DNA of 64,000 bases from Candidatus Falkowbacteria bacterium (lineage in GTDB: Bacteria > Patescibacteriota > Patescibacteriia > Patescibacteriales > UBA12465), in NCBI GenBank assembly GCA_012800315.1, contig JAAZJO010000010.1, positions 45,942-109,941 on the forward strand, in the 5' to 3' direction. The notes below the pieces were generated by a model. It did not search any database. It had not been told where the DNA came from and was given only the letters and a program-made list of their open reading frames with translations. This document shows positions 4,898 to 63,100 of the stretch, piece after piece. Both the position numbers and the translations under genes were made by a program. The stretch's first letter is position 1; each line of letters starts with the position of its first letter.

Positions 4898-4971
4898 TGG
4901 TCGGGGCGCTGGGAATTGAACCCAGTCAACATGCTCCCAAAGCATGCGTACTACCGGTATACGACGCCCCG
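4898..4971 (-). tRNA. tRNA-Pro (anticodon TGG), CCA encoded
   Basis: The reverse complement begins cggggcgtcgtataccggtagtacgcatgctttgggagcatg with an anticodon loop ttTGGga. It ends with the T-arm ggttcaattcc, a 7-bp acceptor stem and CCA. Confidence 0.8.
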
Positions 4972-4973
4972 TT

Positions 4974-5048
4974 TGGTGCCTCGGGTCAGAATTGAACTGA
5001 CGACACAAGGATTTTCAGTCCTTTGCTCTACCACTGAGCTACCGAGGC
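4974..5048 (-). tRNA. tRNA-Phe (anticodon GAA)
   Basis: The reverse complement begins gcctcggtagctcagtggtagagc with an anticodon loop ctGAAaa and the T-arm gttcaattctgac. Confidence 0.8.
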
Positions 5049-5090
5049 CCAAGAATCATAATAGATTTATGGGTTTTTTGATAAAAACTG

Positions 5091-5163
5091 TTGCGGGAGT
5101 TGGACTCGAACCAACGACCTCTAGGTTATGGGCCTAGCGAGCTGCCAACTGCTCTATCCCGCG
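5091..5163 (-). tRNA. Initiator tRNA-fMet (anticodon CAT), no encoded CCA
   Basis: The reverse complement is cgcgggatagagcagttggcagctcgctaggcccataacctagaggtcgttggttcgagtccaactcccgcaa. It shows a C1:A72 mismatch and a CGCGGG start like bacterial initiator tRNA. The anticodon loop is ccCATaa. Confidence 0.65.
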
Positions 5164-5191
5164 ATACATTTTCTAATTTAATTTATTAGAG

Positions 5192-5265
5192 TGGGCAATG
5201 GAGGAGTTGAACCTCCGACCTCAACATTATCAGTGTTGCGCTCTAACCAACTGAGCTAATTGCCC
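5192..5265 (-). tRNA. tRNA-Ile (anticodon GAT), no encoded CCA
   Basis: The reverse complement is gggcaattagctcagttggttagagcgcaacactgataatgttgaggtcggaggttcaactcctccattgccca with the anticodon loop ctGATaa. Confidence 0.75.
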
Positions 5266-5325
5266 GTTAATTTTACGAATAAGAATATAACAAATAATAA
5301 ATAAAAAAGCAAGGATTGCCTTTAT

Positions 5326-6294: not shown

Positions 6295-6327
6295 AAATTG
6301 AGTGTTTAGCGTGCACAGTTTTTAATT

Positions 6328-8422: not shown

Positions 8423-8445
8423 CTTAATTAAATAGTTTAATAATA

Positions 8446-11199: not shown

Positions 11200-11431
11200 A
11201 TTTTAATTTTACCATTAAAAAGACCGGCTGGGTAGTAATTTTAAAAAAACTCCGTAAAATAGAGATTTTTATTAGGTGGATATTAAAAAGCGGGTTTCTA
11301 GTTGTTTGAACGAAAGCCTGAAGGAAATTAAATATAGAGCGAAGTTTTTGGCTAGGCATTTTGTTTAATTTTGCCTTGATTTTATGTAATTTTTGTGATA
11401 CATTGCTGCTATAAAAATAAGTCAAGATTTT

Positions 11432-14256: not shown

Positions 14257-15318
14257 TTAATATTTTATATAATTTAAAGGATTATATCGGGTGCCATTAA
14301 TAACCACTTCAAAATGAAGGTGTGGTCCAGTTGATCGTCCAGTAGAACCCATTAACATAATCGTTTGTCCCTTTTCAACTTTATCACCAACTTTAACTAA
14401 TAATTTTGAAGCATGACCATAGCGCGTTCTAACACCATTGCCGTGATCAATTAAAATGGTATTACCATAGCCGCCATTGTATCCAGTTTGAGCAATAATA
14501 ACTGTACCACTATTGGCCGCATAAATTGGTGTGCCGACTTTATTGGCAATATCTAGACCATTATGAGCCCAAGAAAAGTATTGCGTAATACGATTGCCAA
14601 CAGTTGGCCAAACCATTGAAGAACTATTAGTTTTAGTGGTTGACGGGCTAATTAAATCTTTAATCACAGAAACGCCAGTGTAGTTTGTCGTTTTTTTATT
14701 AACAGTAGTGGTTTGTATTTTCTTTGCTCCTGGGAGAATAAGCTGTTGACCAACAGCCAGGGTTTCTCCTAGAGAATTACTGTCTGCAATTTTTTCTAAT
14801 TCAATATCATATTTTTGAGCTATTCTAGCTAAAGTATCTCCTTTTTTAACAGTATATAAAACTCCGCTACATGGCAAAATAGTTAATTTATCTCCAGGAC
14901 GAATCAGACTATAGGTAGATAAATTATTTGCCCATAAAATAGTATTAACGGTAATGCCGAAACGGCGAGAGATAGTAGAGACGGTATCGCCTGCTTGAAC
15001 AATATAATAAATTATTTCTTTACGCTCGCTTACTTCTTCATCGCCATTGATATTTTCTTCTAGTAAACCTGGCTTAAAGACTAAGTCATTTTCTTCATTA
15101 AAGAAAAAGGGTGAGCCATAATTTAAATCATCTTTACCATCCTCCACGTCTTCTTCTTCTTTGGCAATTACATCATAATCATTAAGATATTTGTTTTGAC
15201 TGGCAGCCAGTATGCTATTCGGAGTGGCAATTTCTTCAATTAATTCTTCTTGCTGAACAGTGCTAAAATCTTTTTTAATTAAATTAAACATAACGGACTT
15301 AGACAATTCCGTGCCCAT
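14257..15318 (-). CDS. LysM-domain M23 family metallopeptidase (peptidoglycan endopeptidase); the ORF stays open upstream to about 15666 without an ATG
   Basis: Two LysM repeats (YIVQAGDTVSTISRRFGI and YTVKKGDTLARIAQKYDI). The M23 core is HNGLDIA...GYGNTILIDHGNGVRTRYGHAS...GSTGRSTGPHLHFEV. The in-frame upstream extension encodes a TM helix IYIFIFCLVFIILF. Confidence 0.8.
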   Translation of the reverse strand: MGTELSKSVMFNLIKKDFSTVQQEELIEEIATPNSILAASQNKYLNDYDVIAKEEEDVEDGKDDLNYGSPFFFNEENDLVFKPGLLEENINGDEEVSERKEIIYYIVQAGDTVSTISRRFGITVNTILWANNLSTYSLIRPGDKLTILPCSGVLYTVKKGDTLARIAQKYDIELEKIADSNSLGETLAVGQQLILPGAKKIQTTTVNKKTTNYTGVSVIKDLISPSTTKTNSSSMVWPTVGNRITQYFSWAHNGLDIANKVGTPIYAANSGTVIIAQTGYNGGYGNTILIDHGNGVRTRYGHASKLLVKVGDKVEKGQTIMLMGSTGRSTGPHLHFEVVINGTRYNPLNYIKY

Positions 15319-34694: not shown

Positions 34695-36176
34695 ATGATT
34701 AAACCGTTTTGGACAAAATGGTCGTTTTTATTCAAGCTCCGTTTTATTTTTGGGGTTATTTTATTGATTTTTTTATTGCTTTTTCTTTATTTAAAAATAG
34801 TCCCTTTTGGCCAGATTAGTTATAGTCGTGATTATAGTTCTGCTTGGCGTTCGAGCAAGGGTTTTATTTCTGGCTTTACGCCGGCAGAAAGAGTTGATTT
34901 AGAAACTAGTGAAGTGCCGGCTATTATCGGCGATCCAGTTTATTTTTCTGTTTTTACACCCCGAACTTTTGATCAAGCTAAGATGACGATTGTTTATCGT
35001 GATAATTTAACTATTGATTTGCCAATTATTGAGGCTGGTGTTTTGGTAGATAATATTGTCTGGCGTTATGATTTAAAACCAGTTGATAATAAAGCGCTTG
35101 ATTATTTAATGTTGCGTTGGGATAAATTGGAAGAGAATGGGCTTTTATTTTTACAGAAAGAAAAGAATTATTCTAGTTTGGCTGATTGGGAAAAGGACTT
35201 AGCGAAAGGAAAAATAAAAGATTGTTCTAATGTTTCAACTAATTGCTTAGCTGTTTATAATTATACTCCACCCTATAAATATCAGATTGCCAATTATCAA
35301 CCGCTTTTGCCATTAACTATTGACCAACCTTTGCGCGGGGCGCATCAATTTTATCTTTATTTAAAAGATGAGCCTTTGCATTTAGATTTTTCTTTTATTG
35401 ATCAAAATTTAGATTTAAAACCAGCACCAATTAAGATAATTTTATCATCTGAAAACGGAATAATAGACACGCAAATAATTGATGATCCTAATCTTAATCC
35501 AGGCAGTGGGCAGATGGAAGAGAAAAAAGTGACGATTGATAAACGTAATTTGTCAGCGGGTATTTATAAGGTTGAGGTTAAGATTACCGATGACATGATT
35601 ATTAAAAAGATAAGTAGTTCAATTGGTCGTCTATCCTTTATTCATAAAATTTGGCCGGTTTCTGGACAAGGTAATTTGAAAGTTTATACTGATTCTAATT
35701 ATTTACAGGTTAAAGCTTTAAGTCCAGCTAGTTTGCAGACGATTAGTTTTGGGGGAAATAAATTTTCTTTAACAGAAGCTTATCGGCAATTTGATTTTTA
35801 TTCTGAGGACGGTGGCTTGATTAAAGAAATAAAAATTGCTCAAGATGATTTAATTTTGGAAAATAATGGAGTTTTTGCTTTGTCGCCGAATGCACTTATT
35901 AATCCTTCTTTAATGAAAGTAGACCGATTTTTTTCTGTGAAGATGCCAGTTAAATATATTGTAGCTGAATATCAAAAACCAAAAGAGGTGAATGGTTTTA
36001 AAGTGGCTACTGTTGAATTTGATTTGAAAAATGCTTATAGAGAGAAGGGAAAATATAACTTTATGATTGCGGTACCTGGCTTAAAAGCGGATGATAAATT
36101 AAATGATAATTTAGAGATTTATAAAATTAATATAGAATTTGAAGGCAGAACACTATGGCAAAAAATTTGGCAATAA
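34695..36176 (+). CDS. Hypothetical N-terminally membrane-anchored protein
   Basis: 493 aa. The N-terminal TM helix is ILLIFLLLFLYLKIV. The rest is soluble with no motifs I recognise. Confidence 0.3.
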   Translation: MIKPFWTKWSFLFKLRFIFGVILLIFLLLFLYLKIVPFGQISYSRDYSSAWRSSKGFISGFTPAERVDLETSEVPAIIGDPVYFSVFTPRTFDQAKMTIVYRDNLTIDLPIIEAGVLVDNIVWRYDLKPVDNKALDYLMLRWDKLEENGLLFLQKEKNYSSLADWEKDLAKGKIKDCSNVSTNCLAVYNYTPPYKYQIANYQPLLPLTIDQPLRGAHQFYLYLKDEPLHLDFSFIDQNLDLKPAPIKIILSSENGIIDTQIIDDPNLNPGSGQMEEKKVTIDKRNLSAGIYKVEVKITDDMIIKKISSSIGRLSFIHKIWPVSGQGNLKVYTDSNYLQVKALSPASLQTISFGGNKFSLTEAYRQFDFYSEDGGLIKEIKIAQDDLILENNGVFALSPNALINPSLMKVDRFFSVKMPVKYIVAEYQKPKEVNGFKVATVEFDLKNAYREKGKYNFMIAVPGLKADDKLNDNLEIYKINIEFEGRTLWQKIWQ

Positions 36177-36332: not shown

Positions 36333-38318
36333 ATGTCTTTAAATAATTTTTTTAATCCAGCAGCTGTGGCAGTGGTCGGAGCCTCTAACCAGAAAACAAA
36401 AATTGGGCGCCAGATTCTTGATAATTTAATTAAGGGCGGCTTTAAAGGAAAGATCTTTCCGATTAATTTAAAAGAAAAACAAATCGCTGGTCTAAAGGTT
36501 TATGCTAGCTTAGAAAACCTGCCTTTAAAAGAATGGCCGACTCTTTTAGTAGTTATTGCTATTCCTATGCCTTTTGTTTTAGCCGAGATAAAAAAATGCG
36601 TTAACTTAGGAATTAAAAATATTATTATCATTACAGCTGGTTTCAAAGAAGTTGGCGGAGAAGGTGAAATAGCTGAAGCGGAAATTGCTAAGTTAGCTGC
36701 TAAGCACCAATTAAATATTCTTGGTCCGAATTGTTTAGGATTAATTAATACTTGGGGTAAGTTGAATGCCAGCTTTAGTTCGGCAGATACAAGCACCGGC
36801 AATATTGCTTTTTTATCTCAGTCAGGCGCAATTGGCTCAGCTGCGCTTGATTGGTTAAAAGTTAAAGATTTTAATTTTGCTTATTTTATTAGTTTAGGCA
36901 ATAAGGTGGCTATTGATGAAAATCAAGTGATTGAATATCTAGCCTCTGATTCACGAATTGATTTAATTGTTGTTTATTTGGAAGAAATTAAAGATGGTCA
37001 GAAGTTTATGAATTTAGTTTCTCGTTTAATTAAGTATAAGCCGGTAGCTATTTTAAAAGCCGGTCAAAGTATAGCTGGTGGACAACTAGCCTTGTCACAT
37101 ACTGGCTCTTTAGCTGGTTCTAGTGCGGTGATTAAGGCGGGTGTTAAAAGAGCGGGGGCTATTTGGTTAGAAAATTTAGGAGAATTATTTAATTTATTAC
37201 TTATTTTTCAAAAGAAAAATTGCTGTGATAATCAGAGTCAGGAGCTGTCTTTAATTACTAATGCGGGTGGTTTAGCAGTTTTAACGGTTGATGAAATTGA
37301 GCGACAAAATATTTCTTTTGGTTATAGTTGGGATTTACTAGGTGATGCTAATGGAGAAAAATATGAAGCAGGATTAAAAAAAGCGCTAGCGGATAAAAAA
37401 GTTCATAATCTTTTAGTTTTATTAACACCGCAAACTTCAACTGAGCCACTTAAAACAGCAGAAGCAGTGATTAAAATAGCTAAAAAATATCCAACTAAAT
37501 TAGTGATGACTAGCTTTGTTGGTGGCCAAGCAGTAGCTGAGGCGCGTGATCTTTTAGAAAAAAATAGCATCCCAACTTTTGAATATCCAGAAGAGGCAGT
37601 GCGCAGTTTTAAAAAATTAGTTGATTATAAAAAAAGTGCTAAGACTATTAAGTCATACAAATTGCTAAAAACAACAATGAAAAAACCAATTACTGAAACT
37701 GATTATTTAAAATCAATGGCTCTTTTGCGTGAATATGATATTCCGACAATTAAAACGGTTAAATATGAGGCAACTCAGGTAAAATCATATCAGTATCCAG
37801 TGGTTTTAAAAATTGTGGGACCTGATTTTTTACATAAAACTGATAAGCAGGCAGTGGTCACTAACATTAAAGATGAGCAGACTCTAAAAAAGATGGCAGC
37901 TCTTTTAGAGAAACGGCATAAAAAGATCTTAGCTAATAAACAAAATTATTTAATTGTTCAAAAACAGGCGGATCATTTTCAAGAAATAATTATGGGCTTT
38001 AAGCGTGATGCCTCTTTTGGACCGGTGATGATGATCGGTTTGGGTGGTATTTATGCTGAAGTTTTTAAGGAAGTAAAATTGGCGATGAGTGATTTAGATT
38101 TACAGACTGCTTTAGAAAAAATTGCTGAACTAAAAATCTACCCAATTTTAAATGGGGCGCGCGGGCAAAAGAAATACGATCTTAAGAGTTTAGCTGAAGC
38201 CTTTGTTAATTTATCTCGCTTAGCTAACGAGCATCCGGAAATTAAGGAATTTGATCTTAATCCTTTATTTGTTTTTGAAAAGGGGGTGTTGGCAGCTGAT
38301 GTTAGAATTATTATTTGA
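36333..38318 (+). CDS. Acetyl-CoA synthetase (ADP-forming, fused alpha-beta; NDP-forming acyl-CoA synthetase family)
   Basis: CoA-binding N-terminus AVAVVGASNQKTKIGRQILDNL, a succinyl-CoA-synthetase-like flavodoxin domain, and a C-terminal ATP-grasp. The ORF is 661 aa. Confidence 0.8.
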   Translation: MSLNNFFNPAAVAVVGASNQKTKIGRQILDNLIKGGFKGKIFPINLKEKQIAGLKVYASLENLPLKEWPTLLVVIAIPMPFVLAEIKKCVNLGIKNIIIITAGFKEVGGEGEIAEAEIAKLAAKHQLNILGPNCLGLINTWGKLNASFSSADTSTGNIAFLSQSGAIGSAALDWLKVKDFNFAYFISLGNKVAIDENQVIEYLASDSRIDLIVVYLEEIKDGQKFMNLVSRLIKYKPVAILKAGQSIAGGQLALSHTGSLAGSSAVIKAGVKRAGAIWLENLGELFNLLLIFQKKNCCDNQSQELSLITNAGGLAVLTVDEIERQNISFGYSWDLLGDANGEKYEAGLKKALADKKVHNLLVLLTPQTSTEPLKTAEAVIKIAKKYPTKLVMTSFVGGQAVAEARDLLEKNSIPTFEYPEEAVRSFKKLVDYKKSAKTIKSYKLLKTTMKKPITETDYLKSMALLREYDIPTIKTVKYEATQVKSYQYPVVLKIVGPDFLHKTDKQAVVTNIKDEQTLKKMAALLEKRHKKILANKQNYLIVQKQADHFQEIIMGFKRDASFGPVMMIGLGGIYAEVFKEVKLAMSDLDLQTALEKIAELKIYPILNGARGQKKYDLKSLAEAFVNLSRLANEHPEIKEFDLNPLFVFEKGVLAADVRIII

Positions 38319-46127: not shown

Positions 46128-46527
46128 GTTTATTATTTTTACTGACGGAGGAGCGCGGGGCAATCCAGGACCAGCTGGGATTGGCGCGGTTATTTATAAT
46201 GAGGACAAAGTTTTAGTAGCAGAGATTTCTGAATATTTAGGCGAGACTACTAATAATCAAGCTGAATATAAAGCTTTGATTGCTGCTTTAAAAAAAGTAA
46301 TCACTTTAGGAGCAATTGAAGTGGAGTGCTATCTTGATAGTGAGTTAGTGGTTAAACAATTAAATCGGGAATATAAAATAAAGAACAAAGAGCTGGCGCC
46401 TTTGTTCTTAGAGATACATAATTTAAGTTTAAATTTTAAAAAGATTTCTTTTATCCATATTCCGCGTGAGCGGAATAAGGAGGCAGATAAATTAGCTAAT
46501 GAGGCAATGGACAGAGGCGCTAAATAA
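46120..46527 (+). CDS. rnhA: Ribonuclease HI
   Basis: IIFTDGGARGNPGPAGIGAVI and TNNQAEYKALIAAL are RNase H catalytic motifs. It overlaps the recJ stop by 8 nt. Confidence 0.8.
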   Translation: MSKFIIFTDGGARGNPGPAGIGAVIYNEDKVLVAEISEYLGETTNNQAEYKALIAALKKVITLGAIEVECYLDSELVVKQLNREYKIKNKELAPLFLEIHNLSLNFKKISFIHIPRERNKEADKLANEAMDRGAK

Positions 46528-46538
46528 GCGCCTTTTTA
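46515..46538. terminator. Bidirectional terminator between convergent rnhA and the minus-strand por-pilin operon
   Basis: Hairpin aggcgc-taaataa-gcgcct followed by ttttt on plus and an A/T run on minus. Confidence 0.45.
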
Positions 46539-46540: not shown

Positions 46541-47734
46541 TTATGAATTTGGACAAGGATTATTCATCGGTTCATTATATTGATAATGCCACCATTCTCC
46601 ACAATATCTAACCCAGCCGGCCGCCTGCATTATTTCTTTTAATTTTTCTACATCAGCATCAGAATATTCAGCATTAGCTTTTCCGCCAATGTGATTACAA
46701 GATTCCGTGCCTTTAATACAAAGATCAATTGCTTTACCACTGCGGTGACCACCGCAACTTCCCGGTTTAGCTACCCATTTTTGGGCTTCTAGTTCGTTGC
46801 CGTATGTTCTTAGGGCGGCTTCCCATAATTCTTGTTGGTGTTGAGCTGTTCTAAAGGCGCTAACGACATGTAGATTAACACCTCGTTTTTGAGCTTCGGA
46901 GATAGCTAAAGAGAGACCATCAATTCCTTCAGGGGCGAGAAAAGGTGAGGTAGCGCTCGTTGAAACTAAATCAGAGATAGGTTGAATTTCTTTATCTTTA
47001 GCACAGGTACCGACAGCATTTTCAGTACTATCACTACCATTTTTTATAGGGGTGATAACTATTTTTTGAACTGAGGAAACATTAACTCCTTTTAGATTAA
47101 CTAAATCAGGATTGACGATTGTTAAAATTGTGTAGGAAACTAGCAGAATGATTAAGCCACTAATACTACCGATTATTAATTCCTTCGCTTTAGTAATTTT
47201 TGAGGCATCGCCAGCTGAAATTAGCCAGAGCAAACCACCAGCCATTAGCATGATGGCGGCGAGAATACCGACAATGCCCAGAGCATAATTATATAAACCA
47301 GCAATATATTGCCCAATCCAAGGAATATTACATTTTTCACCCACGGGACAAGTTACAGGAGCTAATTTATTTAGCCCAGGTATTTGCACCTGAAAATCAG
47401 GGATAGTAAAGCGGGCAGCTACTGGTTCTTGTACTGGTTCTTGGGTTTCACAACAACAGACAGCCTCATCTAATCCTTTAGTTTTTGGTTTTGGCGTGGC
47501 GGAGCAGAAGTCATCGCTAAATTGAGTCATTTGCTTCTCTTCACATGTCCCAGATTTAATTATTACTTTACTTATTATGGTGTTTTGCTGATAAGAAGTT
47601 GTCATTGCTTTATTTATCACTGACCAAGTACAATTTCCGCCAGCGCTGACTGGATTTGTGGTAGATAAAAAGAGGCTCAAAAAAAGAAGAGGAAATAAAA
47701 TCAAGAGTATAGATTTTTTTATCTTTAAATTCAT
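46541..47734 (-). CDS. Secreted Cys-rich protein with T4SS-pilin-like two-helix hairpin fused to C-terminal M15 (VanY-like D-Ala-D-Ala carboxypeptidase) domain
   Basis: Signal peptide and CCCE motif. Hairpin is GIVGILAAIMLMAGGLLWLISAGDASKITKAKELIIGSISGLIILLVSYTILTIVNP. M15 motifs are VVSAFRTAQHQ, HRSGKAIDL and EWWHY. The ATG overlaps the porB stop as ATGA. Confidence 0.6.
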   Translation of the reverse strand: MNLKIKKSILLILFPLLFLSLFLSTTNPVSAGGNCTWSVINKAMTTSYQQNTIISKVIIKSGTCEEKQMTQFSDDFCSATPKPKTKGLDEAVCCCETQEPVQEPVAARFTIPDFQVQIPGLNKLAPVTCPVGEKCNIPWIGQYIAGLYNYALGIVGILAAIMLMAGGLLWLISAGDASKITKAKELIIGSISGLIILLVSYTILTIVNPDLVNLKGVNVSSVQKIVITPIKNGSDSTENAVGTCAKDKEIQPISDLVSTSATSPFLAPEGIDGLSLAISEAQKRGVNLHVVSAFRTAQHQQELWEAALRTYGNELEAQKWVAKPGSCGGHRSGKAIDLCIKGTESCNHIGGKANAEYSDADVEKLKEIMQAAGWVRYCGEWWHYQYNEPMNNPCPNS

Positions 47735-48603
47735 ATTTTATATTTTTTTATATTTTCGGCGGCTAATTTTTGGATAATAGAAATATCAGCTTCTTTTAGA
47801 TGTTTAAAACGTCCTTGTTTTTTTAAATATTCTTCAACTGCTTTAGCTTGGAAATTAGAATTAATACTGGAAGCACTTAATTGTCCATTAATATATTCTA
47901 ATAACGGATAAAGACCAGTTTGGACGGCTAATTTGCCCAGCATTGCTGCTTCGTTATTATTTATTTTCCAACCGGGAATGCAGGGGCAGAGTATTTGTAG
48001 ATAACTTGGGCCATCTGTTTCTAAAGCCTTTTTTACTTTATTAGTAATATCATCTGGAAAGCCGGCAGAGGATTGAGCAACATATTTTAAATTATGTGCT
48101 AGAGCAATAGCTAGCATATCTTTTTTTCTTTGAGTTGAGCCGCTGGAGACGGTGCCTGAGGGGGAAGTAGAGGTACTGGCGCCGTAGGGAGTAGCACCCG
48201 AGGCCTGTATACCAGTATTTGAATAAGCTTCGGTATCATAACAGATATATAAAACATTTTCTCCGCGCTCCCAGAGACCACTAATTAAGCCAAAGCCAAT
48301 ATCAAAAGTGCCACCGTCGCCCCCTTGAACAACTACTTTAGTTTTTTTATCGCCTTTTTTATTTAGAGCGGCCTTAATGCCTGAAGCTACAGCGGCAGCA
48401 TTTTCAAACAAAGAATGAATCCAGGGTAAACCCCAAGCACTTTGCGGATAAGCAGTTGTGGTTACTTCTAAGCAACCAGTGGCGTTAGCGATAATAACAT
48501 TTTTATGTAAGCCGCGCATTACTGCTTGTGCAGCTGATAATTGACCGCAGCCAGCGCAACCGTTGTGGCCAGGGGAGAGAAATTTAGTATTTTTATTATT
48601 CAT
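47731..48603 (-). CDS. porB: 2-oxoacid (pyruvate):ferredoxin oxidoreductase beta subunit (TPP-binding)
   Basis: Cys cluster GHNGCAGCGQL. TPP-binding motif QGGDGGTFDIGFG. I took the start at the internal Met MNNKNTKF (48603) since the longer ORF overlaps the upstream gene. Confidence 0.85.
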   Translation of the reverse strand: MNNKNTKFLSPGHNGCAGCGQLSAAQAVMRGLHKNVIIANATGCLEVTTTAYPQSAWGLPWIHSLFENAAAVASGIKAALNKKGDKKTKVVVQGGDGGTFDIGFGLISGLWERGENVLYICYDTEAYSNTGIQASGATPYGASTSTSPSGTVSSGSTQRKKDMLAIALAHNLKYVAQSSAGFPDDITNKVKKALETDGPSYLQILCPCIPGWKINNNEAAMLGKLAVQTGLYPLLEYINGQLSASSINSNFQAKAVEEYLKKQGRFKHLKEADISIIQKLAAENIKKYKI

Positions 48604-49621
48604 AATCACAAACGTTATCTGTAAAAGCTTTACGTCGACAATTCCCATGATTTTGGTTTGAACCACAGGTTGGGTGTTGTTCTGTAGAAGCGCATTTATA
48701 ATCATCTTCTTTGGGGTCTCCACAGGCTGCTCCAGGCGGTAGACAAGGTTGACAAGATCCATTTTGACAATATCCAAAAGCAGTTAATGGAACTGTTGTT
48801 TGTCCAGAGGTTGATAATTTTGTGTAAGTACAAGCCTCTTTATCTTTTTTTCCTTCACAACCACCAGAAAATAAATCTGATGAATTTGGAATATACGGTG
48901 CGGTAGTAGTATTTGTTTTTTCGCATTTATATTGGTCTGCAGACGAGACTCTAATATACCCTAAATCTAATGATCCACAAGGATAATTTGAGTTAATAGT
49001 GACTCCTGAGGCCTCTAAGTCTTTGGCCCATTTGCAATCACTTAATTCTCCGGTTCCTAAGTTTGATTTGCAACAACAATCATCATAGTGATTATTTACT
49101 TCTTTAGCTACTAATTTATTTACAGCGATAGGTTGTAAATTAACCAGTTTAGGATTAATAGTGTTTAATATTGTCCAGGAGATAAGTAAAATAATTAAAC
49201 CAACGATGCTGCCAGAAATTAAATTTTTTGCTTTAGAAATTTTACCTGAATCACCACCAGAAGTTAACCAGATAAGACCAGCACCCATTAATATAATAGT
49301 GGCTAAAATTCCGACAATAGCTAGTCCATAATTATAAAAAGATCCAATATATCTTGGTAATAAATCAGTATAGATTTTTCCATCTTTTAACGAGTCAACT
49401 GGAATCGGAGTTCCTTTTTGAAATTCAGAGTCAGGAATAGTAACCTGCGGCGTAAAGTTTAGGGTATCTTCCAGATCTACTTTGGCGGCCATAGCTGATA
49501 GAGGAACTGATAAAATAAATATTGCGCCTATAACTTGTAGCCCCAAAAATAGTCTGATTAAAATTTTATTAAGATTAGATTTAGGTTTAAACATATTATT
49601 TGCGTAACTATATTTTACCAA
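48596..49621 (-). CDS. Secreted T4SS-pilin-like hairpin protein with Cys-rich C-terminal domain, inserted between porA and porB
   Basis: Signal peptide LIRLFLGLQVIGAIFILSVPLSAMA. Hairpin GLAIVGILATIILMGAGLIWLTSGGDSGKISKAKNLISGSIVGLIILLISWTILNTINP is a paralog of the one in 46541-47734. CCCK motif is followed by about 25 Cys in 170 aa. Confidence 0.5.
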   Translation of the reverse strand: MVKYSYANNMFKPKSNLNKILIRLFLGLQVIGAIFILSVPLSAMAAKVDLEDTLNFTPQVTIPDSEFQKGTPIPVDSLKDGKIYTDLLPRYIGSFYNYGLAIVGILATIILMGAGLIWLTSGGDSGKISKAKNLISGSIVGLIILLISWTILNTINPKLVNLQPIAVNKLVAKEVNNHYDDCCCKSNLGTGELSDCKWAKDLEASGVTINSNYPCGSLDLGYIRVSSADQYKCEKTNTTTAPYIPNSSDLFSGGCEGKKDKEACTYTKLSTSGQTTVPLTAFGYCQNGSCQPCLPPGAACGDPKEDDYKCASTEQHPTCGSNQNHGNCRRKAFTDNVCDYE

Positions 49622-50759
49622 TAAATTTTATTTTTTGACCATTCTTTTTTTTCACATCAGTTACTATTTCTCTAATCATTTTTTGCGTGATATCACGTCC
49701 GCCTAAGCCAACAATATAATTTTTAATATTTAATTGATTATTTGGTAAAGAAGCTTGGATGTCAGAAAACAAGGGACCGGCTTGCCCTAAACTAATTGCT
49801 TTTTCAATGACAGCAATATTTTTGGCCGTTAATAAAATTTGGCTAACTTCTTTTGCAGGAAATGGGCGATAAGTTTTTATTTTCAAAAGGCCAGTTCTCT
49901 GATCATTTTTTAGAGTTTCGCGAATGGTACCAATAACTGAGCCCATAGCTACTAAAATAGTTTCTGGTTTTTTAGGACCAGAGTATTCAACTAAGCCGCT
50001 ATCTTTATTTTTTCTCCCTAAGAGATGCATTAAATCTTTATATTCTTTTTTAATGATAGTTAAACTAGCTGTTAAATCATGGTGTAAGTTTTCCCGGGTT
50101 TCAAAATAATCAGCAGGGGTAGCAAAAATACCAAAAGTCATTGGTTTTTTTGGATTTAAAAACTGATCCGCTTTAGGGGCGTAGTTTGGGAGAAATTTTT
50201 TTATTATTTTTGAGGAAGGGATAATAACCGGCTCAAAAGCATGAGTTAAAATAAAACCATCAACATTAACCATCACTGGCAGGCGTAATTGCTCAGCAAT
50301 TTTGTAAGCTAAAATGTGAAGATCAACAGCTTCTTGATTAGAATCAGCAAAGAAATGAATCCAGCCAGCATCACGAATAGTCATAACATCGCTATGATCA
50401 TTCCAAATATTTATAGGAGCAGAAATAGCGCGATTAGCGCAAGTCATAACTACGGGCAATCTTAGGCCAGCGATGTTAAAAATAACCTCAGTCATTAATA
50501 GCAAACCTTGTGAACTAGTAGCGCTATAACTACGCACACCGGTAGCGCTAGCGCCTAAAATAATTGAGGCAGCCGCAAATTCGCTTTCTGCTCTTAGATA
50601 TTCATAATCAGCCTCGCCATCCGCTTTTAGTTTGGCTAGTTTTTCAACAATGTGAGTTTGGGGGGTGATTGGGTAAGCGGAAATGACTGCTGGTTTAATA
50701 TTTTTAATCACAGCCGCAATAGCTTGAGAACCTTCTAAGAGTTGTTTTTTATTTTCCAT
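49608..50759 (-). CDS. porA: 2-oxoacid (pyruvate):ferredoxin oxidoreductase alpha subunit
   Basis: 383 aa. GSQAIAAVIKNIKPAVISAYPITPQT is the PorA N-terminus. Transketolase-like Pyr domain. Confidence 0.85.
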   Translation of the reverse strand: MENKKQLLEGSQAIAAVIKNIKPAVISAYPITPQTHIVEKLAKLKADGEADYEYLRAESEFAAASIILGASATGVRSYSATSSQGLLLMTEVIFNIAGLRLPVVMTCANRAISAPINIWNDHSDVMTIRDAGWIHFFADSNQEAVDLHILAYKIAEQLRLPVMVNVDGFILTHAFEPVIIPSSKIIKKFLPNYAPKADQFLNPKKPMTFGIFATPADYFETRENLHHDLTASLTIIKKEYKDLMHLLGRKNKDSGLVEYSGPKKPETILVAMGSVIGTIRETLKNDQRTGLLKIKTYRPFPAKEVSQILLTAKNIAVIEKAISLGQAGPLFSDIQASLPNNQLNIKNYIVGLGGRDITQKMIREIVTDVKKKNGQKIKFIGKI

Positions 50760-50764: not shown

Positions 50765-51040
50765 TTAAAAATCATTTTCCATTTTTATAGCTTTAACTGG
50801 GCATTCGTGTGCACATAGACCACAGCCTTTGCAATAGTCATAATTTATTTTTGCTTTTATTTTTTCCGTTTTAATCTGTTTTTTCATTTCAATACAGCCT
50901 TCTGGACAAAGCTTGGCACATAATGAGCAGCCGACACAGGTATTTAAATTAATTACTGGCTTGACTGTTCGCCAAGAGCCAGTTTTATTAGCTAGGCTAG
51001 AGTTTGCTTGAGCGGAAAGATTAGTGATTGGCGCTTTCAT
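50765..51040 (-). CDS. porD: 2-oxoacid:ferredoxin oxidoreductase delta subunit (2x[4Fe-4S] ferredoxin)
   Basis: Two CxxCxxCxxxCP motifs: CVGCSLCAKLCPEGC and CKGCGLCAHECPVKA. Confidence 0.85.
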   Translation of the reverse strand: MKAPITNLSAQANSSLANKTGSWRTVKPVINLNTCVGCSLCAKLCPEGCIEMKKQIKTEKIKAKINYDYCKGCGLCAHECPVKAIKMENDF

Positions 51041-51581
51041 AATTTTTAGTGATGGCTAAAATATTTTTTTTAATTATTTCTTGTCCCTTTTCTTTAAATT
51101 TTTCAGTAATGGCTTTTTTTAATGATTCTAAGCTAACTAGACCGGTATATTTAGCAAAGGCGCCAAGAATAGTGGTATTAACTATATTTTTCCCGAATAT
51201 TTCCATGGCAATTTCGGTGGCGGCGGTGAAATAAAGATATTTAAATTTTTTCTTTAATTCCGGCCATTTATTTTCTGGAGCATTAATAATTATAATTGTT
51301 TCTGGAGTGCGGCCAGCAAAAACATCAACACTTTCTAATAGTGTAGCATCTTGAATAATTAAAATGCTCGGCTGATAAATTTGTTCACGAGTTGTGATTG
51401 CTTGATGACTGAGGCGGACGAATGATTGGATTGGAGCACCAGTTCTTTCTACACCAAAATTAGGAAAGGCCTGGGCTTCATAGCCTTCGTAAAAAGCAGC
51501 TAGGGCGATAAGCTCAGTGGCTGTAACCACTCCTTGCCCACCGCGTCCATGAATTCTTATTTGTTCCAGTTTATTTTTCAT
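51021..51581 (-). CDS. porG: 2-oxoacid:ferredoxin oxidoreductase gamma subunit
   Basis: IRIHGRGGQGVVTATELIALAAFYEGYEAQAFPNFGVERTGAP is the gamma-subunit signature. Confidence 0.85.
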   Translation of the reverse strand: MKNKLEQIRIHGRGGQGVVTATELIALAAFYEGYEAQAFPNFGVERTGAPIQSFVRLSHQAITTREQIYQPSILIIQDATLLESVDVFAGRTPETIIIINAPENKWPELKKKFKYLYFTAATEIAMEIFGKNIVNTTILGAFAKYTGLVSLESLKKAITEKFKEKGQEIIKKNILAITKNYESANH

Positions 51582-51588: not shown

Positions 51589-52365
51589 TTAGTTATTTTC
51601 GGTGGTTGTGCTTAGTGATAGTTGCTGTAAAATACCGTCAAACAATTCTCTAAACTTTTCAGTTGGATAATAACCGGTAAGAGGATAATTATTAACAAAC
51701 CAAGTTGGTGTGCCTTGTATTTGGAGAGCTTGACCATCATCATAGTCTTTTTTAATTTCGCTGATATAGGTTCGGTTGTTAAAACAAGCTTCAAATTTCG
51801 CCATATCTAAAACATTGAGAGAGTTAGCCCAAGAAATAATATCAGCTTTTATGGTCGTAGGCTCTTTTAAATAATCTTGATTAAGGAATAGAGAATCAAA
51901 AGCTTCCCAATACTGCCCTTGTTCACCAGCACAACGAGCAGCTAAAGAGAGATCTATTGAAGTGTCATGGATTGGATAATCGCGAACAACGTATCTGACG
52001 GTTTGCTTATATTCTTCAGTTAATTTTCTCATTTCTTCAGAGGCTTGTTTGCAGAAAGGGCAGGCGAAATCATTAAATTCAACGATAGTGATTTTAGGAT
52101 CAGGGGATCCGGTAGCATAGGGACTTCCTCCGTTAATTAAATTTAAATAGATTTGACCTTGATTTTCTAGAGCGTTTAAAGATTCTCCAGCTTGGATACG
52201 CTTTACTTCCTTAATAACATAGATAGTTGAGGCGATGATGGCAGCTAAAACTAAACTTAGGATAAGTAAAAGAATTATCCCCCACCATTTTTTATACCAA
52301 GGGACAAAAAGTTGGCTGTGTCGCGCCTTCATTTCAACATATTTTATTCTGTCGTCTAAATTCAT
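51589..52365 (-). CDS. Membrane-anchored DsbA-like thioredoxin-fold thiol:disulfide oxidoreductase
   Basis: N-terminal TM helix WWGIILLLILSLVLAAIIASTIYVI. Active site is FNDFACPFCKQ (CPFC). It sits 7 nt upstream of porG on the same strand. Confidence 0.65.
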   Translation of the reverse strand: MNLDDRIKYVEMKARHSQLFVPWYKKWWGIILLLILSLVLAAIIASTIYVIKEVKRIQAGESLNALENQGQIYLNLINGGSPYATGSPDPKITIVEFNDFACPFCKQASEEMRKLTEEYKQTVRYVVRDYPIHDTSIDLSLAARCAGEQGQYWEAFDSLFLNQDYLKEPTTIKADIISWANSLNVLDMAKFEACFNNRTYISEIKKDYDDGQALQIQGTPTWFVNNYPLTGYYPTEKFRELFDGILQQLSLSTTTENN

Positions 52366-56561: not shown

Positions 56562-57158
56562 ATGGCTTCAGCTAGAAATCCTTTAGAGAGAAGAAAAAAT
56601 AAGCAAATTGCCGCTAATTCGCCTCGTAATAAAAAAATAGTGGTGTTATTTTTTAGTTTTTTTGCTATTTTAATACTTATTTTTTCCGGTTGGAGATTTT
56701 ATAAGTTTTTAAATGAACCTTTTAGAGTTGAGGGAGAGGGAAGAAATGAGGTAGATATTAATGCTTATTTAGATCCTCTTGATTCGGATAGTGATGGTTT
56801 GTCTGATTATGATGAAATTAATATTTATCATACTTCTCCGTATTTACCCGATTCGGATAGTGATGGTATTTCTGACTATGATGAAATTATGGCTGGTACT
56901 GATCCGAATTGTCCGACTGGTAAAGTTTGTAATACAGCTGAGACGGTTATTACTCCTAAAGATAATTTAGGCACTGATAATAATATTAATGAAGAAAATA
57001 ATCTTTTAACTAGTGGTGAAGTTACTCCAGATTTTTTAAGACAGATATTAATTCAAAGTGGTTCTGATCCAGAAATAGTGGAGCAAATTAGTGATGAAGA
57101 CTTAATGGCCGCTTATCAAGAAGCAGTTAATAGTCAAGTTGAAGTGATTAGTGAATAA
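56562..57158 (+). CDS. Small type-II membrane protein with two thrombospondin-type-3-like Ca-binding repeats
   Basis: TM helix IVVLFFSFFAILILIFSGW. Two DxDxDGxxDxDE loops: DSDSDGLSDYDE and DSDSDGISDYDE. Confidence 0.4.
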   Translation: MASARNPLERRKNKQIAANSPRNKKIVVLFFSFFAILILIFSGWRFYKFLNEPFRVEGEGRNEVDINAYLDPLDSDSDGLSDYDEINIYHTSPYLPDSDSDGISDYDEIMAGTDPNCPTGKVCNTAETVITPKDNLGTDNNINEENNLLTSGEVTPDFLRQILIQSGSDPEIVEQISDEDLMAAYQEAVNSQVEVISE

Positions 57159-57181: not shown

Positions 57182-60100
57182 ATGAAATTTTCTATTAATC
57201 CAATAAAGAAGAATATTAGGAAAACAAGTAAAAAGACTTTAGTTTTTTCACTTGTCTTAGTAATGTTTTTTTCTTTGTTATTAATGCCATTAAAGACTGT
57301 CCAGGCGCAATTAGTGGTGGCGGAGCCAGTGGTAGAGGCACAAACTGGCATTAAAATAGCCATGGATAAAGCGGAGTCAGCTTATAATAAAGCCAAGGCA
57401 ACTTTAAGTAAATTACTTTTAAAAGCGGGAGCCACCTCTTTTCAGCAAGTTGTAAGAGCAGCTTTAAATAAAATAGCTTATGATACGGCAACCTATTTAG
57501 GTTCTGGAGACAGGGGGCAAAAACCTTTATTTATCACTGAGGATTTAGGTTCTTATTTAGCTAATGTTGGTGATGCAGCCGCTGGTCAATTTATTGAATC
57601 TTTTGTTACTAGATTAAGTGTAGGGATTAGTGCTGAGTGCCAAAAGACATATCAGGCTTGCGAGGAAAATTGTCAAAATTATTATGAAATTGGTTCAAAT
57701 GAGGGAATAACTTGTATTAAGGAGTGCAGAGAGAAAGCCTATTTATGTGGTCGGGGTGAGGTAGGTGTTGGCACGAGTAGTAAAAGCGGTTTGAGTGGTG
57801 CGGGAGCTGCTTCAGCAACCCATCTAGGCGCTTTAAATATATGCCAACCATCTTCTTTAGAAGCGAAAGTTAAGATTGGTTTAGGTTTAGTTGAGTATCA
57901 AAGCCCAATGATGAATGCTAATTGTACCGCTTCTAAAATGATTAGTAATTGGGATGATGCCGCAACTAAAATGGCTGATTGGAAAGATCCAAATTTCCTA
58001 GACAACATTAAAGGTATATTTAATCCCACTTCTCACGATTTAGGAATATACATGACTGCTAGAAGTGATTTAGCTTCAGCTAAAGCAGGCGCTAGTACTT
58101 TATCTTTAAATGATTTTTTAGTTAATAAAGGTTGGTTAAGTAAAAGAAATGCGGCTGGTGAAATGGTTGGTACTCCTGGTGATGCTGAAAGAAAAGCACA
58201 AACAACTGAGGCAGCCGCTAAAGAGTCTTTACTACGTACTACCGGCGATATTGTGGTTGACGCGGCCAATGTTTTTGTTAATCAATTAGCGATTACCAAG
58301 TTTAATGATTTAATGTCTAATTTAGGCAAGAAGGTCACTGATGATTCTAGCGGTAGCAGCCGACGACTTTCAGGAGATTTAACTAATCCTGAATCTGATT
58401 CAACTACTTCTTATAGCGCGACTGGATTAAAAGAGTCTTTGTATTCAATTATTGAGCCAGATTTTGGGGTTAAAGCAGATTATGATATTTTAGCTAGTTT
58501 AACAGTTTGTTTTGATAAAAAAAATCCCGGTCCAACCGAGTGTGTTATTGATAGTAAGTTTAGTCAAGCTATTAGTGAAAATAAAACAGTGATTGAAGCA
58601 GTTAGAGAGGGTTATATAAACAGTGATTGGCAGTTAACAGAAAAAACGATAGAAGGCGCTTATTCTTTACGCAATGTTTCTATTTTGAGAAAATATCGCA
58701 TTTTACCAATTGGTTGGGAGGAAGCGATTAAACGAGCTTATGCTGACTCAGCTAAGGTTAAGAGAATTACGGTGATGGATATGATTTCTTGTTTTGATGA
58801 GTCTGATGAATATCAAAAGTTTAGTTCTAACTTTAATGTGGCTGATCAAGAGTGGTGTCGTGGCTTAGTTGATCCTAACTGGGTTTTGAAAGCACCACTT
58901 AATTATTGTAGCAAGCAAGGATCGGGAGCACATATTATTAGCAAAATAGTGTCTCCTTCTTATGGCGTTAAAGGTGCGGCTGATTATGTAGCTAGTGTTT
59001 TTAGTGTTAGTCGTGATGAGGAATATTGTGCTGATGAAAAAACTTGTATTAAGGAAAAGGCTGATGGTAGTTGTGAAGCCTATGGATATTGTAATGAGGA
59101 AAAGAGAACTTGGAATTTTTCAGCTGATAGTTGTGATCCGATTTATAATACTTGTCAAAATTTCACTAATGCGGCCACCGGTCAAAATGTTTCTTATTTA
59201 AAAAATACTTTAGATTACGCTAATTGTGATACAAATAGCGTTGGTTGTCGTCAATATTCTCTTAGTGGTTCTTACGATGTAGCTACTGGTGTTGTTTCTT
59301 GGGGCAAGAATAAAACAATTTATTTTAATAATAATTTAGAAATTTGTGATAAAAATAGTGAAGGTTGCACAGAGTTGATTAGAGTTAAGCCGACTTGGGG
59401 AGTTAATTTAATAATGAATTCAAACTTTAAAGATGACACCATCAACAGGCCACCAAAAAATTGGTACTTTGATTTTAATTCTTCCTTAAATACTTTTCAG
59501 GTTGTTAATTTAGCCGAAGAGCCAATTGGTGGAGTTGGTCGGGCCTTAAAAATCTCTGGTGAAAGAAAAGGCAGTTCTCCTGAACATATTTCAGTTAAAG
59601 TTGTTTCCAATGCCCAAAAATCTCTTTTGCCTGATAATTTTCAATTAATTCCTAACCAGGCCTACACTCTCAGTGTTGATGTTTATATTCCTGAGGGAAC
59701 AGCGGGAACAGCTAGAATTTATTTGGGCGAATTATCAGATGGTTTTGTGGCCTCAACCTCTAAGACTGGAGCTTGGCAGCACCTATCAGTGACCCGAACG
59801 GCTGCCGCTAATTATACTGAGCCGGTCTTCTATATTGAGAATCAAAATTTCGGCACTAAGAATGTAATGTATCTTAGAAATCCTAAATTTGAAGTTAGTA
59901 ATTACGAAACTAACTTTAATGCTTATGGCAGTGCTTATAAAGTTTATGAAAAATTAATTCCGCCATATTTAGAAAGTGTTTGTTATAATAATATTTCTAG
60001 TGCCACTAAAGACTATACCTTAAAAACTAACGCTCCGGCTGTTTGTTATGATTTCGCTCGTCGCTGTAATCGTGATGAAGTTGGTTGCGAGAAGTTTGTG

Positions 60101-63100
60101 GGGGTAAAAAATGGCATCACTGTTTCTGCCCAAGTAACCGCCTCTGATTATTGCTGGGGAGATTGCTTAGATTATGATGTTTATGTTTCTAAAGGAAGTT
60201 ATTTTAATTCTCCAGAAGCAGAAAATATTATTCCTACTAAAGCCACTGCTTGTCGGGCTGAAGTGGTTGGTTGTAATGAATTTACTAACCTTGATGCTTT
60301 AAATGTTGGTGGAGAGAATAAAGAATATTATTCTGCCATGAAGCGATGCGTTAAACCGTCGCAGGGGACTTGTGGTACTTTTTATAGTTGGGAGGGCACA
60401 AAGAATGGTTATCAGTTAAGATCTTATGTTTTAGAAAGAGAAATAAATAAGAATCAACCAAAGTTAACTTTTGGAGAAGTAAATGATTCGGCTACTTGTG
60501 ATCAAAATATTTATCATAAGAAAGTTGGCGAAGTAGGCTATAACCCAGATTGTTTAGAGTTTATTAATTCGGCTGGCGATGTTTTTTATGCTTTGCTTTC
60601 AGCGACAATAACTTGTTCCGAGGATTGTCATACCTATCGGATGACTGAAAAAAATATTGATAGAAGCATTACTTCAAGAGATGCTTGTGTTGAATCGGGT
60701 GAAAATGGCAGCACTTATTGGGACGCTGTGGCTGGTGCCTGCTATTCCTGTTTAAATGGTGGTCAATGGGATAATGCAACTAAATCTTGTTTGTATCAAG
60801 CTATTCCTGGAGAGGGCAAGATCTGTACGGCTGCCGAAAGTGGTTGTCGTGAATATAATGGTAATAGTGGTAATAATGTGAAACTGCTTACTTCGTTTGA
60901 TTTTGAAAACGGAAGCCAGGGTTGGCTATCAGCTAACGGCACTCTTAACACTGTAGCCGTGGCTAATGAAAAGGACGGTCATTCAATTTATTATGAAAAT
61001 AGTAAAAATTATTTTGTTAGGACTAAGGTTAGTCAGTTAGTTAAAGAAGGGAAGTCTTATGCGATTCGCTTTATTGCTAAGGCTGATGAGACCACTAATT
61101 TAAATATTTTCTTTACCGATAATGCGGATAATAATCCACAGAGAGCTAGTTTTTCTGCCGGCAAAATAACTCTAAAAGGTGGTGGCGAGTGGCACATCTA
61201 CCAAGCTAATTTAGCTAATTTAGACCATGCTATTTCTGAAAATGAAACCTTGACAATCATGGCTGATAATAATTTTTATTTTGATGACTTTGCTTTAACA
61301 GAAATAACTAATCGTCATTATTTAGTAAAGAATTCTAGCGTTGTACCGGATATTTGTTTTTATGATATTAATAGTGTTTATCGGGGAGCGGAATATAATT
61401 TAGGTTGTACTCAATATAAAGATCGTGATAATTTAACTCATAATTTGCGCAAGTTTTCTAAGCTTTGCTCAAGTTCAGCTGTGGGTTGTGAACAAATGAT
61501 CGCGACTCAAAATTATTCTTCATACGCTAGTGGAATTTGGGGTGATACTAATAATAATGGAGTTTGTGATGTAAATGAAAAAGACTGTGTTCAAGTCGGT
61601 GGCGATGAAATTATTTATACAATTTTTGATTCTAGCAAACAATGTAATTCAGCTGATTTAGGTTGTAGTCGTTTAGGACAGGGAATAGCCGCTGGCTCTG
61701 ATTGGTCAGATGTCTTTAGAAAAAATAATCCAAATCTATACGCTAGCGCTTTGTGTGGTCCAGCTCAAGTTGGTTGTGAGAAATGGATAGCTACCGATGG
61801 CTCGGAAAGTTATTTTAAGAATCCAGGAAATGAGGTTTGTCAATATCGTAGTAGTCATGATTTAAATAATCCAGTAAAAGCTTGGTATAAAATTCCAGTT
61901 AAGCGTTGTGATTCTAATGGAAATGGTGTTATAGACACTGAAACAGAAAAGGCGGGAGCAGTTTGCTCAACCGATAGTATGTGTTCAGCTGGTTCTTGTA
62001 TTATTGATAATAATGATTATCCTTGTGATTATTCATATTTTAAAACTTTTGGTATCGGTGGTGCGGGCAATCAAGTTCCAGTACCAAGCAAGCAAGTTGC
62101 TTTGTGTCAAGCAACTGCTTCTGGCTGTACAGAATATATTGACCCAGTAAGTAGTTTTTCACCAGAACTTTTAGATAATCCGAATGATAATATTCAGCAA
62201 GTTGCCTTAAGCCCAAATAAATTATATATCCTCTCTGTTGACAAGGGGGATAAGGATAATCAAAGTGATACGATTCTGAAATTTGAGGCTATTATTAAAC
62301 CTTTATTAGCAGATAATAATTTAGGGATTTCTACGACGACTATTACAATAGATAAAAATACTAGTGACCGGATTATGTTTGCTTCTTTAGCTAATTCCTC
62401 AGTTACTATTTCTGGCGGCGAGGTAGGGAAAAAGATTGAGTTAAAAGAGGCAATTATTAATTATCAACTCAAAAATAGTATAGATGTAACTAGTTGCAAC
62501 GGAGTGGTTAATCCAGGGGTTGGCTGTATTCTTTTTAATGAAAGAACGGTAGCTGGCGCAACCGGTTTAGCAGCGAATAAGTTTGATGCTGTTAATAGTG
62601 TTAGTGGACAAGCGCCACAGCTTTGTGATTCAGATTCAGATAATTGCACCGCTAATCAGCTAGTTAAAGTAAAATTAGACAGAGTTTGCTCTAAGTGGCT
62701 TGATTGTGTAGCTTATTTTAATGATCCTAATACCAATGAACGAGTCTGTTTAGCTTTAGGACAATGTACTCGGCTTGATGATAAGAATGAATGTGCTAAT
62801 TTTGAGGATGTTCCAAGTGGCAATACCTCTTTTGCTTCAGCGAGAAATAAAGATAAGACTGGTTATTATCTACTTAATAATTATCATTTAAGCGAGATGA
62901 AAGAAGTTGGTCTTAAAGTGCCTGGTGCTAATTATGATTTTGAAAATGGAGTGGCTCCCCTATGTTCTCAAACAACTGGCGAAGCTTGTTCTTTGGAAAC
63001 TTTGAATAGTTTAATTATTAGCGAGCCAGAAAAAGCGCCAACTGATTATCCTGCTCAGGGCACTGGCTATCTAAGAGTGCCCCCTTCTACAATTATTTCA

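Follow-up and report, generated by a model that had tools for sequence, protein, structure and literature searches.

A variable, cysteine-rich domain on a type IV secretion pilin-like hairpin, encoded between porA and porB in a Candidatus Falkowbacteria bacterium

A 64,000-nt stretch of DNA from a Candidatus Falkowbacteria bacterium (GenBank assembly GCA_012800315.1, contig JAAZJO010000010.1, positions 45,942 to 109,941; the window) contains a gene situated between porA and porB, two genes of pyruvate:ferredoxin oxidoreductase (POR). This target gene (48596..49594, minus strand) encodes a 332-aa protein composed of a signal peptide, a linker, a VirB2-like hairpin and a cysteine (Cys)-rich C-terminal ectodomain. 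Judged by profile searches and comparisons among related genomes, the hairpin is homologous to the pilins of type IV secretion systems (T4SSs) and the ectodomain, or tail, is a cassette that is hypervariable between species. In the explanation preferred here, to which we give an even chance, an exported pilin-type handle displays a variable, DsbA-oxidised domain, for binding or as an effector, either at the membrane or on a pilus, and a role in recognition is preferred. An earlier description made from the letters of the DNA alone (the sequence-only reading) had presented the product as a secreted, Cys-rich protein with a pilin-like hairpin; each feature that it described was borne out.

The open reading frame (ORF) on which that description was based is present between porA and porB, listed as 48596..49621 (minus strand), where the TTG at 49621 sits inside the 3' end of porA. 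The ATG at 49594 is the likelier start; it lies 13 nt past the porA stop codon (TAG, 49608-49610), yields 332 aa and was picked by the gene callers on three public contigs. Residue numbering throughout refers to this 332-aa protein. The product is identical to NCBI NLZ74625.1, a 'hypothetical protein' of Candidatus Falkowbacteria bacterium, and exact copies occur in 107 indexed blocks of a public sequence collection, so that a chance ORF and a pseudogene can both be discounted. A variant with 96% identity keeps every Cys, about 20 genomes have a homolog of 277-420 aa at this position, and the G+C content of the gene (34.6%) matches that of the window (34.8%). The sole oddity is that no obvious Shine-Dalgarno sequence precedes the ATG when the sequence is read by eye. 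There is next to no chance that the target is not a functional gene, whether a chance ORF or a decaying remnant between porA and porB; the conservation data rule this out, and the pseudogenised fragment for which the sequence-only reading had allowed is not what was found. At the 3' end, the target stop codon (TAA, 48596-48598) and the porB start codon (ATG, 48601-48603) fall within an 8-nt overlap, ATGAATAA (48596..48603, minus strand), as the earlier reading had indicated for the porB start region. An overlap of this type is associated with translational coupling.

The N-terminus of the protein resembles a signal peptide (aa 1-36; 49487..49594, minus strand), with basic residues at K3, K5, K10 and R14 and a hydrophobic core at aa 15-32. 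These are followed by SAMA|AK, a putative signal peptidase I site read from the sequence; a lipobox is absent. The hydropathy profile, with peaks near aa 20, 100 and 135, agrees with this assignment, and the full-length AlphaFold model places a helix at aa 8-29. The mature protein is predicted to begin with an extracellular linker that contains the conserved motif FTPQVTIPDSEF (aa 47-58; 49421..49456, minus strand). This motif lies beyond the PF18895 model and is kept in homologs of this locus; in its FTPQVxIP core, F47, P49 and Q50 are each present in at least 90% of 31 aligned homologs and P54 is present in 31/31.

The linker leads into a two-helix hydrophobic hairpin, the T4SS_pilin (PF18895) module (aa 77-150; 49145..49366, minus strand), whose short basic loop, WLTSGGDSGKISKAK, is predicted to be cytoplasmic. 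The hairpin string cited in the sequence-only reading, AGLIWLTSGGDSGKISKAKNLISGSIVGLIILLISWTILNTINP, is found in the target, and the loop sequence that joins the two hydrophobic helices reads TSGGDSGKISKAK. Pfam PF18895 matches aa 81-146 with 30.9-31.0 bits against a gathering score of 26.6, over model positions 7-71 of 71. The gathering score is also exceeded by 30/31 position-1 homologs (the gene between porA and porB) and by 25/30 proteins from the slot after porB or from arrays in loci that have no por genes. AlphaFold predicts hairpin helices at aa 78-111 and 116-146, and a model of the hairpin module alone (23 sequences) consists of two long helices with a predicted local distance difference test (pLDDT) score of 83.5. 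Seventeen hairpin and loop positions are invariant over 23 aligned sequences, one of which is the paralog encoded in the window.

A profile search with the hairpin module returned 170 proteins. Among the 120 listed, lengths range from 81 to 215 aa, and most match PF18895 and several also PF04956 (TrbC/VirB2). One match, P0135, belongs to an array of six small pilin genes in locus L039, beside VirB4-like (P-loop_TraG), TraC-like and PrgI genes. Profile-profile comparison (hhalign) of the hairpin with ten small pilins, five from the L039 array and five others that match both PF18895 and PF04956, gave a probability of 98.9% and an E value of 2.5e-17 over 82 columns. The loop motif TSxGDxGKxxxxK is common to target-type hairpins and the small pilins of this reference set. 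Together, the PF18895 match, the profile-profile alignment and the common loop motif show that the handle is homologous to T4SS pilins, so the pilin-like hairpin that had been proposed from the sequence is significantly similar to pilin families. Some homologs of the target are also named 'pilin' by NCBI. Among PDB sequences the hairpin profile produced only chance transmembrane matches, with no detectable similarity to any solved pilin, and its structural match to solved conjugative pilins is not clearly distinct from that of generic hairpins. An NCBIfam scan returned only a sub-threshold match, to the Mycoplasma integrative and conjugative element pilin-like family NF045849 (23 bits, where the cutoff is 40). 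As a separate observation, the L039 locus (1965..13566) is a Patescibacteria T4SS cluster in which genes for a VirB4-like ATPase, a TraC-like protein and PrgI are accompanied by six tandem small pilins (96-225 aa), with a seventh pilin 1.4 kb further on.

The C-terminal ectodomain (aa 151-332; 48599..49144, minus strand) comprises 182 aa and 16 Cys and has no known family. All 16 Cys lie within aa 173-329 and none occurs before aa 173, so that the Cys content of the tail is 9%, compared to 1.2% across the ORFs of the window. They begin with a juxtamembrane CCC (aa 173-175; 49070..49078, minus strand; codons TGT TGT TGC), which forms the CCCK (aa 173-176) that had been noticed after the hairpin. 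In nearly all homologs parsed, a CC doublet (CCC in the target) is located 15-24 residues past the NPxL end of helix 2. When Cys residues past helix 2 were counted, the number was even in 32/32 parsable database homologs (14-32 Cys) and in 23/23 complete genes located between porA and porB in the related loci. By random parity, an even count in 32/32 would have a probability near 2^-32, although the sequences are related and not fully independent. The even parity argues that all tail Cys are paired, which in the target would correspond to about eight disulfide bonds.

Searches for relatives of the tail returned few. Pfam gave no match in the tail of the target or of any of 31 homologs. A phmmer search of the tail against 1.84 billion representative proteins gave seven matches, of which P0035, P0036 and the fragment P0040 are credible as relatives and four are repeat-protein noise. 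A fourth relative is the syntenic gene in locus L031, and the tails of all four have the same Cys scaffold. A 5-sequence tail profile searched against 5.8 billion clusters returned solely P0040. The sequence-only reading had called this part a Cys-dense domain with no obvious homology, a description that holds except for these few relatives.

The tail is hypervariable in comparison to its surroundings. Between L004 and L006, PorA is 97% identical, PorB 92% and the handle 83%, compared to 24% for the tail. The corresponding values for L011 and L013 are 93%, 90%, 76% and 19%. For L017 and L023 they are 90%, 93%, 66% and 22%, but this is not a strict ortholog comparison because it sets the second hairpin gene of L017 against the single gene of L023, which the DNA alignment pairs with the first L017 gene. 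Shuffled tails give an identity of 19.2 +/- 2.6%, so that the tails of these pairs are at background level, whereas handle identity remains at 66-83%. The boundaries were checked at the DNA level in two genome pairs, and both were sharp. In L004 and L006, identity falls from ~80% to random, with indels, inside one 60-nt interval at codon ~186 and is back to ~87% from 12 nt into porB. The same drop is seen between L011 and L013, with identity regained by ~60 nt into porB. The target itself is, by these comparisons, a mosaic of a handle and a tail with different affinities. Its handle is closest to those of P0002-P0004 (67-69% identity), whose tails are unrelated to that of the target, and its tail is closest to those of P0035, P0036 and L031 (33-45%), whose handles are only ~50% identical.

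Variation of this kind is also seen at other positions. The position-2 hairpin genes of L011 (7822..9195) and L013 (7779..9017), whose PorA proteins are 93% identical, have both ectodomains at random DNA identity and a hairpin at 57-68%, so that cassette replacement extends beyond the gene between porA and porB. In the more distant genome of L038 (GCA_964560005.1), the porA-porB interval (10001..12310) contains two adjacent hairpin genes that have an identical stretch of ~80 aa spanning the hairpin and ectodomains that differ. These two genes look like the products of gene conversion or recent duplication. The same interval also holds two small ORFs (71 and 69 aa) after the hairpin genes. With regard to the source of the variation, blastn and tblastn searches of the tail against the window returned chance matches only, with no silent cassettes or template repeats, and Pfam scans of the window contained no reverse transcriptase. 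The tail was for these reasons rejected as the target of a diversity-generating retroelement.

The genes around the target are arranged on the minus strand in the order dsbA-porG-porD-porA-target-porB-paralog, with spacings of 7, -20, 5, 13, -8 and -4 nt. The first gene (51589..52365) encodes a DsbA-like thioredoxin that has a CPFC active site and, at its N-terminus, a transmembrane helix. It is followed by porG (51021..51581; POR gamma subunit) and porD (50765..51040; 2x[4Fe-4S] ferredoxin-type subunit), both assigned by Pfam scan, and by porA (49608..50759), which has POR_N and PFOR_II domains. Downstream of the target, porB (47731..48603) encodes the thiamine pyrophosphate-binding subunit; its true start is the ATG at 48603, not the upstream TTG chosen by the ORF finder. 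The last gene (46541..47734), which shares 4 nt at its start with the end of porB, encodes a paralog of the target with a signal peptide, an N-terminal ectodomain with 8 Cys (CCC at aa 93-95), a PF18895 hairpin (29.3 bits) and a VanY/M15 zinc peptidase. A terminator-like, G+C-rich hairpin (46513..46535), found by consensus scan only, lies between the end of the operon and the convergent RNase H gene. A promoter scan was uninformative (29 sites compared to 23.8 +/- 5.4 expected). Three features that the sequence-only reading did not include are the most informative: the leading dsbA gene, the paralog that joins a hairpin to VanY, and the hypervariable tail.

A search for related loci among GTDB species representatives returned 30, titled Falkowbacteria or Patescibacteria. 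The sequence-only reading had suggested looking for paralogs; one is encoded in the window itself, and about 30 related genomes encode homologs. In ~20 of the 30 loci the order is dsbA-porG-porD-porA-[hairpin]-porB-[hairpin]-RNase H-recJ-lepA, with PorA 53-85% identical to that of the window; four further loci are truncated at contig ends. Two loci, L008 and L017, have two hairpin genes each between porA and porB. In the more distant L038, which has other flanking genes, hairpin genes are also located between porA and porB. Four loci (L025, L030, L032 and L036) have no por genes, and in these dsbA is followed directly by 2-4 hairpin genes. Linkage of dsbA to hairpin genes is seen in every locus that reaches far enough upstream, these four included. 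A neighbour-joining tree (Exo III, RNase H and RecJ) places L025 among por-bearing relatives; its por genes were lost and its hairpin genes retained. The hairpin proteins encoded after porB or in the por-less arrays carry VanY, Peptidase_M15, NlpC/P60, 3D, M15_4, C39-like or Amidase_5 domains. Records for L007, L010, L016, L017, L019, L022, L025, L026, L029 and L031-L033 are titled 'uncultured Gammaproteobacteria bacterium', and on loci of Falkowbacteria type these titles are probably a labelling artefact of co-assembly submissions.

In the preferred explanation, the target would be exported by Sec and its signal peptide cleaved. The conserved handle (module 1, aa 37-150) would consist of the extracellular FTPQVxIP linker, two membrane helices and the basic cytoplasmic loop. 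Two membrane helices joined by a cytoplasmic loop would leave both ends of the mature protein outside, and the hairpin is accordingly predicted to insert with both ends facing outward. In place of 'secreted', the protein is better described as probably exported but retained by its two-helix hairpin, with the N- and C-termini predicted to be extracellular. The tail (module 2, aa 151-332) would be an extracellular domain held by about eight disulfides, presumably made by the membrane-anchored DsbA of the operon. The handle would keep this domain at the cell membrane or, if it polymerises like its small relatives, would expose it along the outer face of a T4SS-type pilus. Replacement of a cassette at the level of species is generally associated with surface proteins that face a changing partner. 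Because module 2 is exchanged or diversified among species while its surroundings are conserved, it is read as the part that contacts other cells and may be an adhesin domain for recognition of a partner or host. The sister protein encoded after porB would work alongside it, with the same handle carrying a peptidoglycan hydrolase. The position in the por operon would most simply provide obligatory, constitutive co-expression with central fermentation genes and does not point to a biochemical role in POR.

Several observations weigh against this explanation. No VirB4, VirB6, VirD4 or PrgI gene was found in the 64-kb window or in the 10 kb past its left edge (74 kb in total), and the genes there are housekeeping only. 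The scan combined Pfam searches of ORFs of at least 90 aa through 42.3 kb with the L001 gene calls from 42 kb to the window end. The co-occurrence with virB4, virB6 and virD4 that the sequence-only reading had proposed as a check was therefore not found within 74 kb, and for this reason any action of the target as a filament-subunit T4SS pilin is one that we infer from homology only. With regard to the wider group, the Falkowbacteria (class ABY1) rows consulted in a published genome table have 'Yes' in the last column, which is read here as VirB4 present (PMC12102498). With 332 aa, the target has roughly double the length that is usual in the family (81-215 aa among the 120 members listed), and a domain of ~20 kDa per subunit might hinder filament packing. 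The tail has no recognisable binding fold; the full-length AlphaFold model (13-sequence alignment) has a mean pLDDT of 59, falling to 37-47 at aa 150-240, and the best Foldseek match in the PDB has an E value of 0.77. Finally, the tail is nearly invariant within the species of the target, which suggests diversification between species rather than ongoing phase variation.

Some of these observations would be explained if the hairpin were only a two-helix anchor for housekeeping exoproteins, namely autolysins of the cell's own wall and a Cys-rich protein, with no T4SS pilus involved. The absence of T4SS genes within 74 kb and the length of the proteins, far beyond that of stand-alone pilins, are consistent with such an anchor, as are the ordinary cell-wall enzymes (VanY, NlpC/P60, 3D and M15) among the locus partners and the murein synthesis genes nearby in the window. 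We consider this unlikely, although it deserves serious attention. The hairpin and loop, with 17 invariant positions among 23 sequences that include the paralog, show much stronger conservation than a passive role would predict, and the loop motif of small pilins encoded beside VirB4-like genes is retained. Judged by these alignments, the constraint on the handle is more than expected for a passive anchor, and conservation this strong, in which the cytoplasmic loop is included, points to a specific contact of the handle, either with itself or with an assembly machine. Replacement of the tail between near-identical genomes would also be left unexplained by a housekeeping role.

The tail could instead be a toxin or inhibitor that the N-terminal handle delivers to a host cell in the manner of CdiA or Rhs, perhaps with release of the domain. 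A conserved N-terminal part, a sharply bounded and unrelated C-terminal part and their mosaic combinations would all fit, as would the two small ORFs after the hairpin genes in L038, and toxins and inhibitors are common among small disulfide-rich domains. Such delivery is nevertheless quite improbable. No immunity-like gene is present, since porB comes next with an 8-nt overlap; there was no match to a toxin family and no Pfam match in the tails of 31 homologs; apart from the juxtamembrane CC, no conserved motif was seen that could mark a cleavage site or a domain border; and a disulfide-knotted domain would be ill-suited to entry into a target cytoplasm. The gene's position between porA and porB, with a start and stop set for translational coupling and conserved in ~20 genomes and the more distant L038, could also point to an accessory POR subunit that tethers the enzyme to the membrane or passes electrons via its cysteines. 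This has very little probability and was rejected. All Cys are on the predicted outer side, with a cytoplasmic loop of only ~12 aa; the Cys-rich part is hypervariable whereas POR subunits are 60-97% identical; and no CxxC cluster-binding pattern is conserved across homologs. Moreover, L025 has lost its por genes and retained its hairpin genes, and por-less relatives of this kind argue against a biochemical link to POR.

The preferred explanation, a pilin-type handle displaying a variable domain, can be compared to known systems. The pilins of F-pili and T-pili are helical hairpins with their termini outside and the loop inside. F TraA, Agrobacterium VirB2 and the Aeropyrum pernix conjugation pilin (8dfu) have in common with the target the helical hairpin and, by prediction, the topology; they differ in having no detectable sequence similarity to it and no large appended domain. 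The VirB2-like pilin arrays of Patescibacteria resemble the target in their PF18895 family, their layout of signal peptide and two helices, and their loop motif. Those pilins are 81-225 aa long, however, and five L039 members end a few residues past helix 2 and are encoded beside VirB4-like and PrgI genes, whereas the target adds the 182-aa disulfide-rich ectodomain and the N-terminal FTPQVxIP linker motif and is encoded in a dsbA-por operon with no T4SS gene in the 74 kb examined. In a cultivated Patescibacterium, epibiotic growth depends on VirB2-like pilin arrays, which are essential for it (Wang et al. 2023, PMC10633639). In digester Patescibacteria, the unknown genes with the highest expression include those for proteins with T4SS-pilin domains (PMC10936435). 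PF18895 pilins are described as widespread in Patescibacteria by Quinonero-Coronel et al. 2025 (PMC12102498).

The sister protein and the variability of the tail also have counterparts. The T4SSs of monoderms include membrane-anchored, VirB1-like cell-wall hydrolases, for example PrgK and TcpG, and the sister protein after porB similarly joins a membrane anchor to a peptidoglycan hydrolase. Its anchor is a pilin hairpin, however, while theirs is a single N-terminal helix; the domains of sister-type proteins are VanY, M15, NlpC/P60 and 3D rather than SLT or CHAP; and the gene lies outside a T4SS cluster. Other hydrolases have been suggested as VirB1 replacements in Patescibacteria, a suggestion that the sister protein fits (PMC12102498). 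The sharp boundary between conserved and variable parts and the mosaic combinations among lineages recall CdiA-CT/Rhs proteins and variable pilus adhesins. Compared to CdiA-CT/Rhs, the target has no immunity gene or known toxin domain, its variable part would be disulfide-knotted and extracellular, and the window contains no silent cassettes or template repeats.

Other genes in the window include a giant ORF (57182..64000, plus strand) that runs past the window end; on the source contig its product has 2678 aa and is probably a large protein of the cell surface. Ahead of it lies a gene for a 198-aa protein with a bacterial TSP3 repeat (56562..57158, plus strand). A 493-aa ORF downstream of rpoC (34695..36176, plus strand) has no Pfam match. 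A further gene (36333..38318, plus strand) encodes a protein of the ADP-forming acetyl-CoA synthetase type (CoA_binding, Succ_CoA_lig and ATP-grasp_5 domains), which together with POR would convert pyruvate to acetate with formation of ATP. Another cell-wall hydrolase, in which an M23 peptidase domain is combined with two LysM domains, is encoded at 14257..15318 (minus strand); LysM and M23 are given as extra domains of VirB1-like proteins in the Patescibacteria T4SS paper (PMC12102498).

The hairpin family and its connection to the T4SS of Patescibacteria are already known (PMC12102498; PMC10633639; PMC12857230). A literature search combining Patescibacteria, pilin and cysteine-rich found no paper. 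No description was found of the long form with a disulfide-rich, cassette-like tail, of fusions between pilin hairpins and hydrolases, of the dsbA linkage or of the interleaving with por genes, either in the literature search or in targeted term searches within PMC12102498. A broader and tentative extension, which we think unlikely to hold in full, is that the VirB2-like hairpin serves as a universal loading handle in Falkowbacteria-like Patescibacteria, on which fused recognition cassettes, exchangeable and disulfide-knotted, and peptidoglycan hydrolases would ride a T4SS-derived pilus to the host cell surface. The porA-porB cassette would then be a host-range determinant swapped by recombination at the handle, and the dsbA-por wiring would tie attachment to the main energy pathway.

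Little is known about how the ultrasmall Patescibacteria recognize and breach their partner cells, experimental work having been confined to Saccharibacteria. The locus described here provides a concrete candidate, open to testing, from an uncultured lineage that is met repeatedly in public metagenome assemblies, among them the JGI metagenomes with the source contig. It offers a candidate set consisting of a handle with a species-specific disulfide-rich domain, a sister with a wall-cutting enzyme and an oxidase to fold both. With its sharp boundaries and its flanks of highly conserved por genes, the cassette is moreover well suited as a marker when strains and host range are typed in metagenomes. 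These results suggest that proteins annotated as 'hypothetical' or 'pilin' hide a modular display system, and if the handle polymerises, these would be, to our knowledge, the first VirB2-type pilins with large natural cargo domains.

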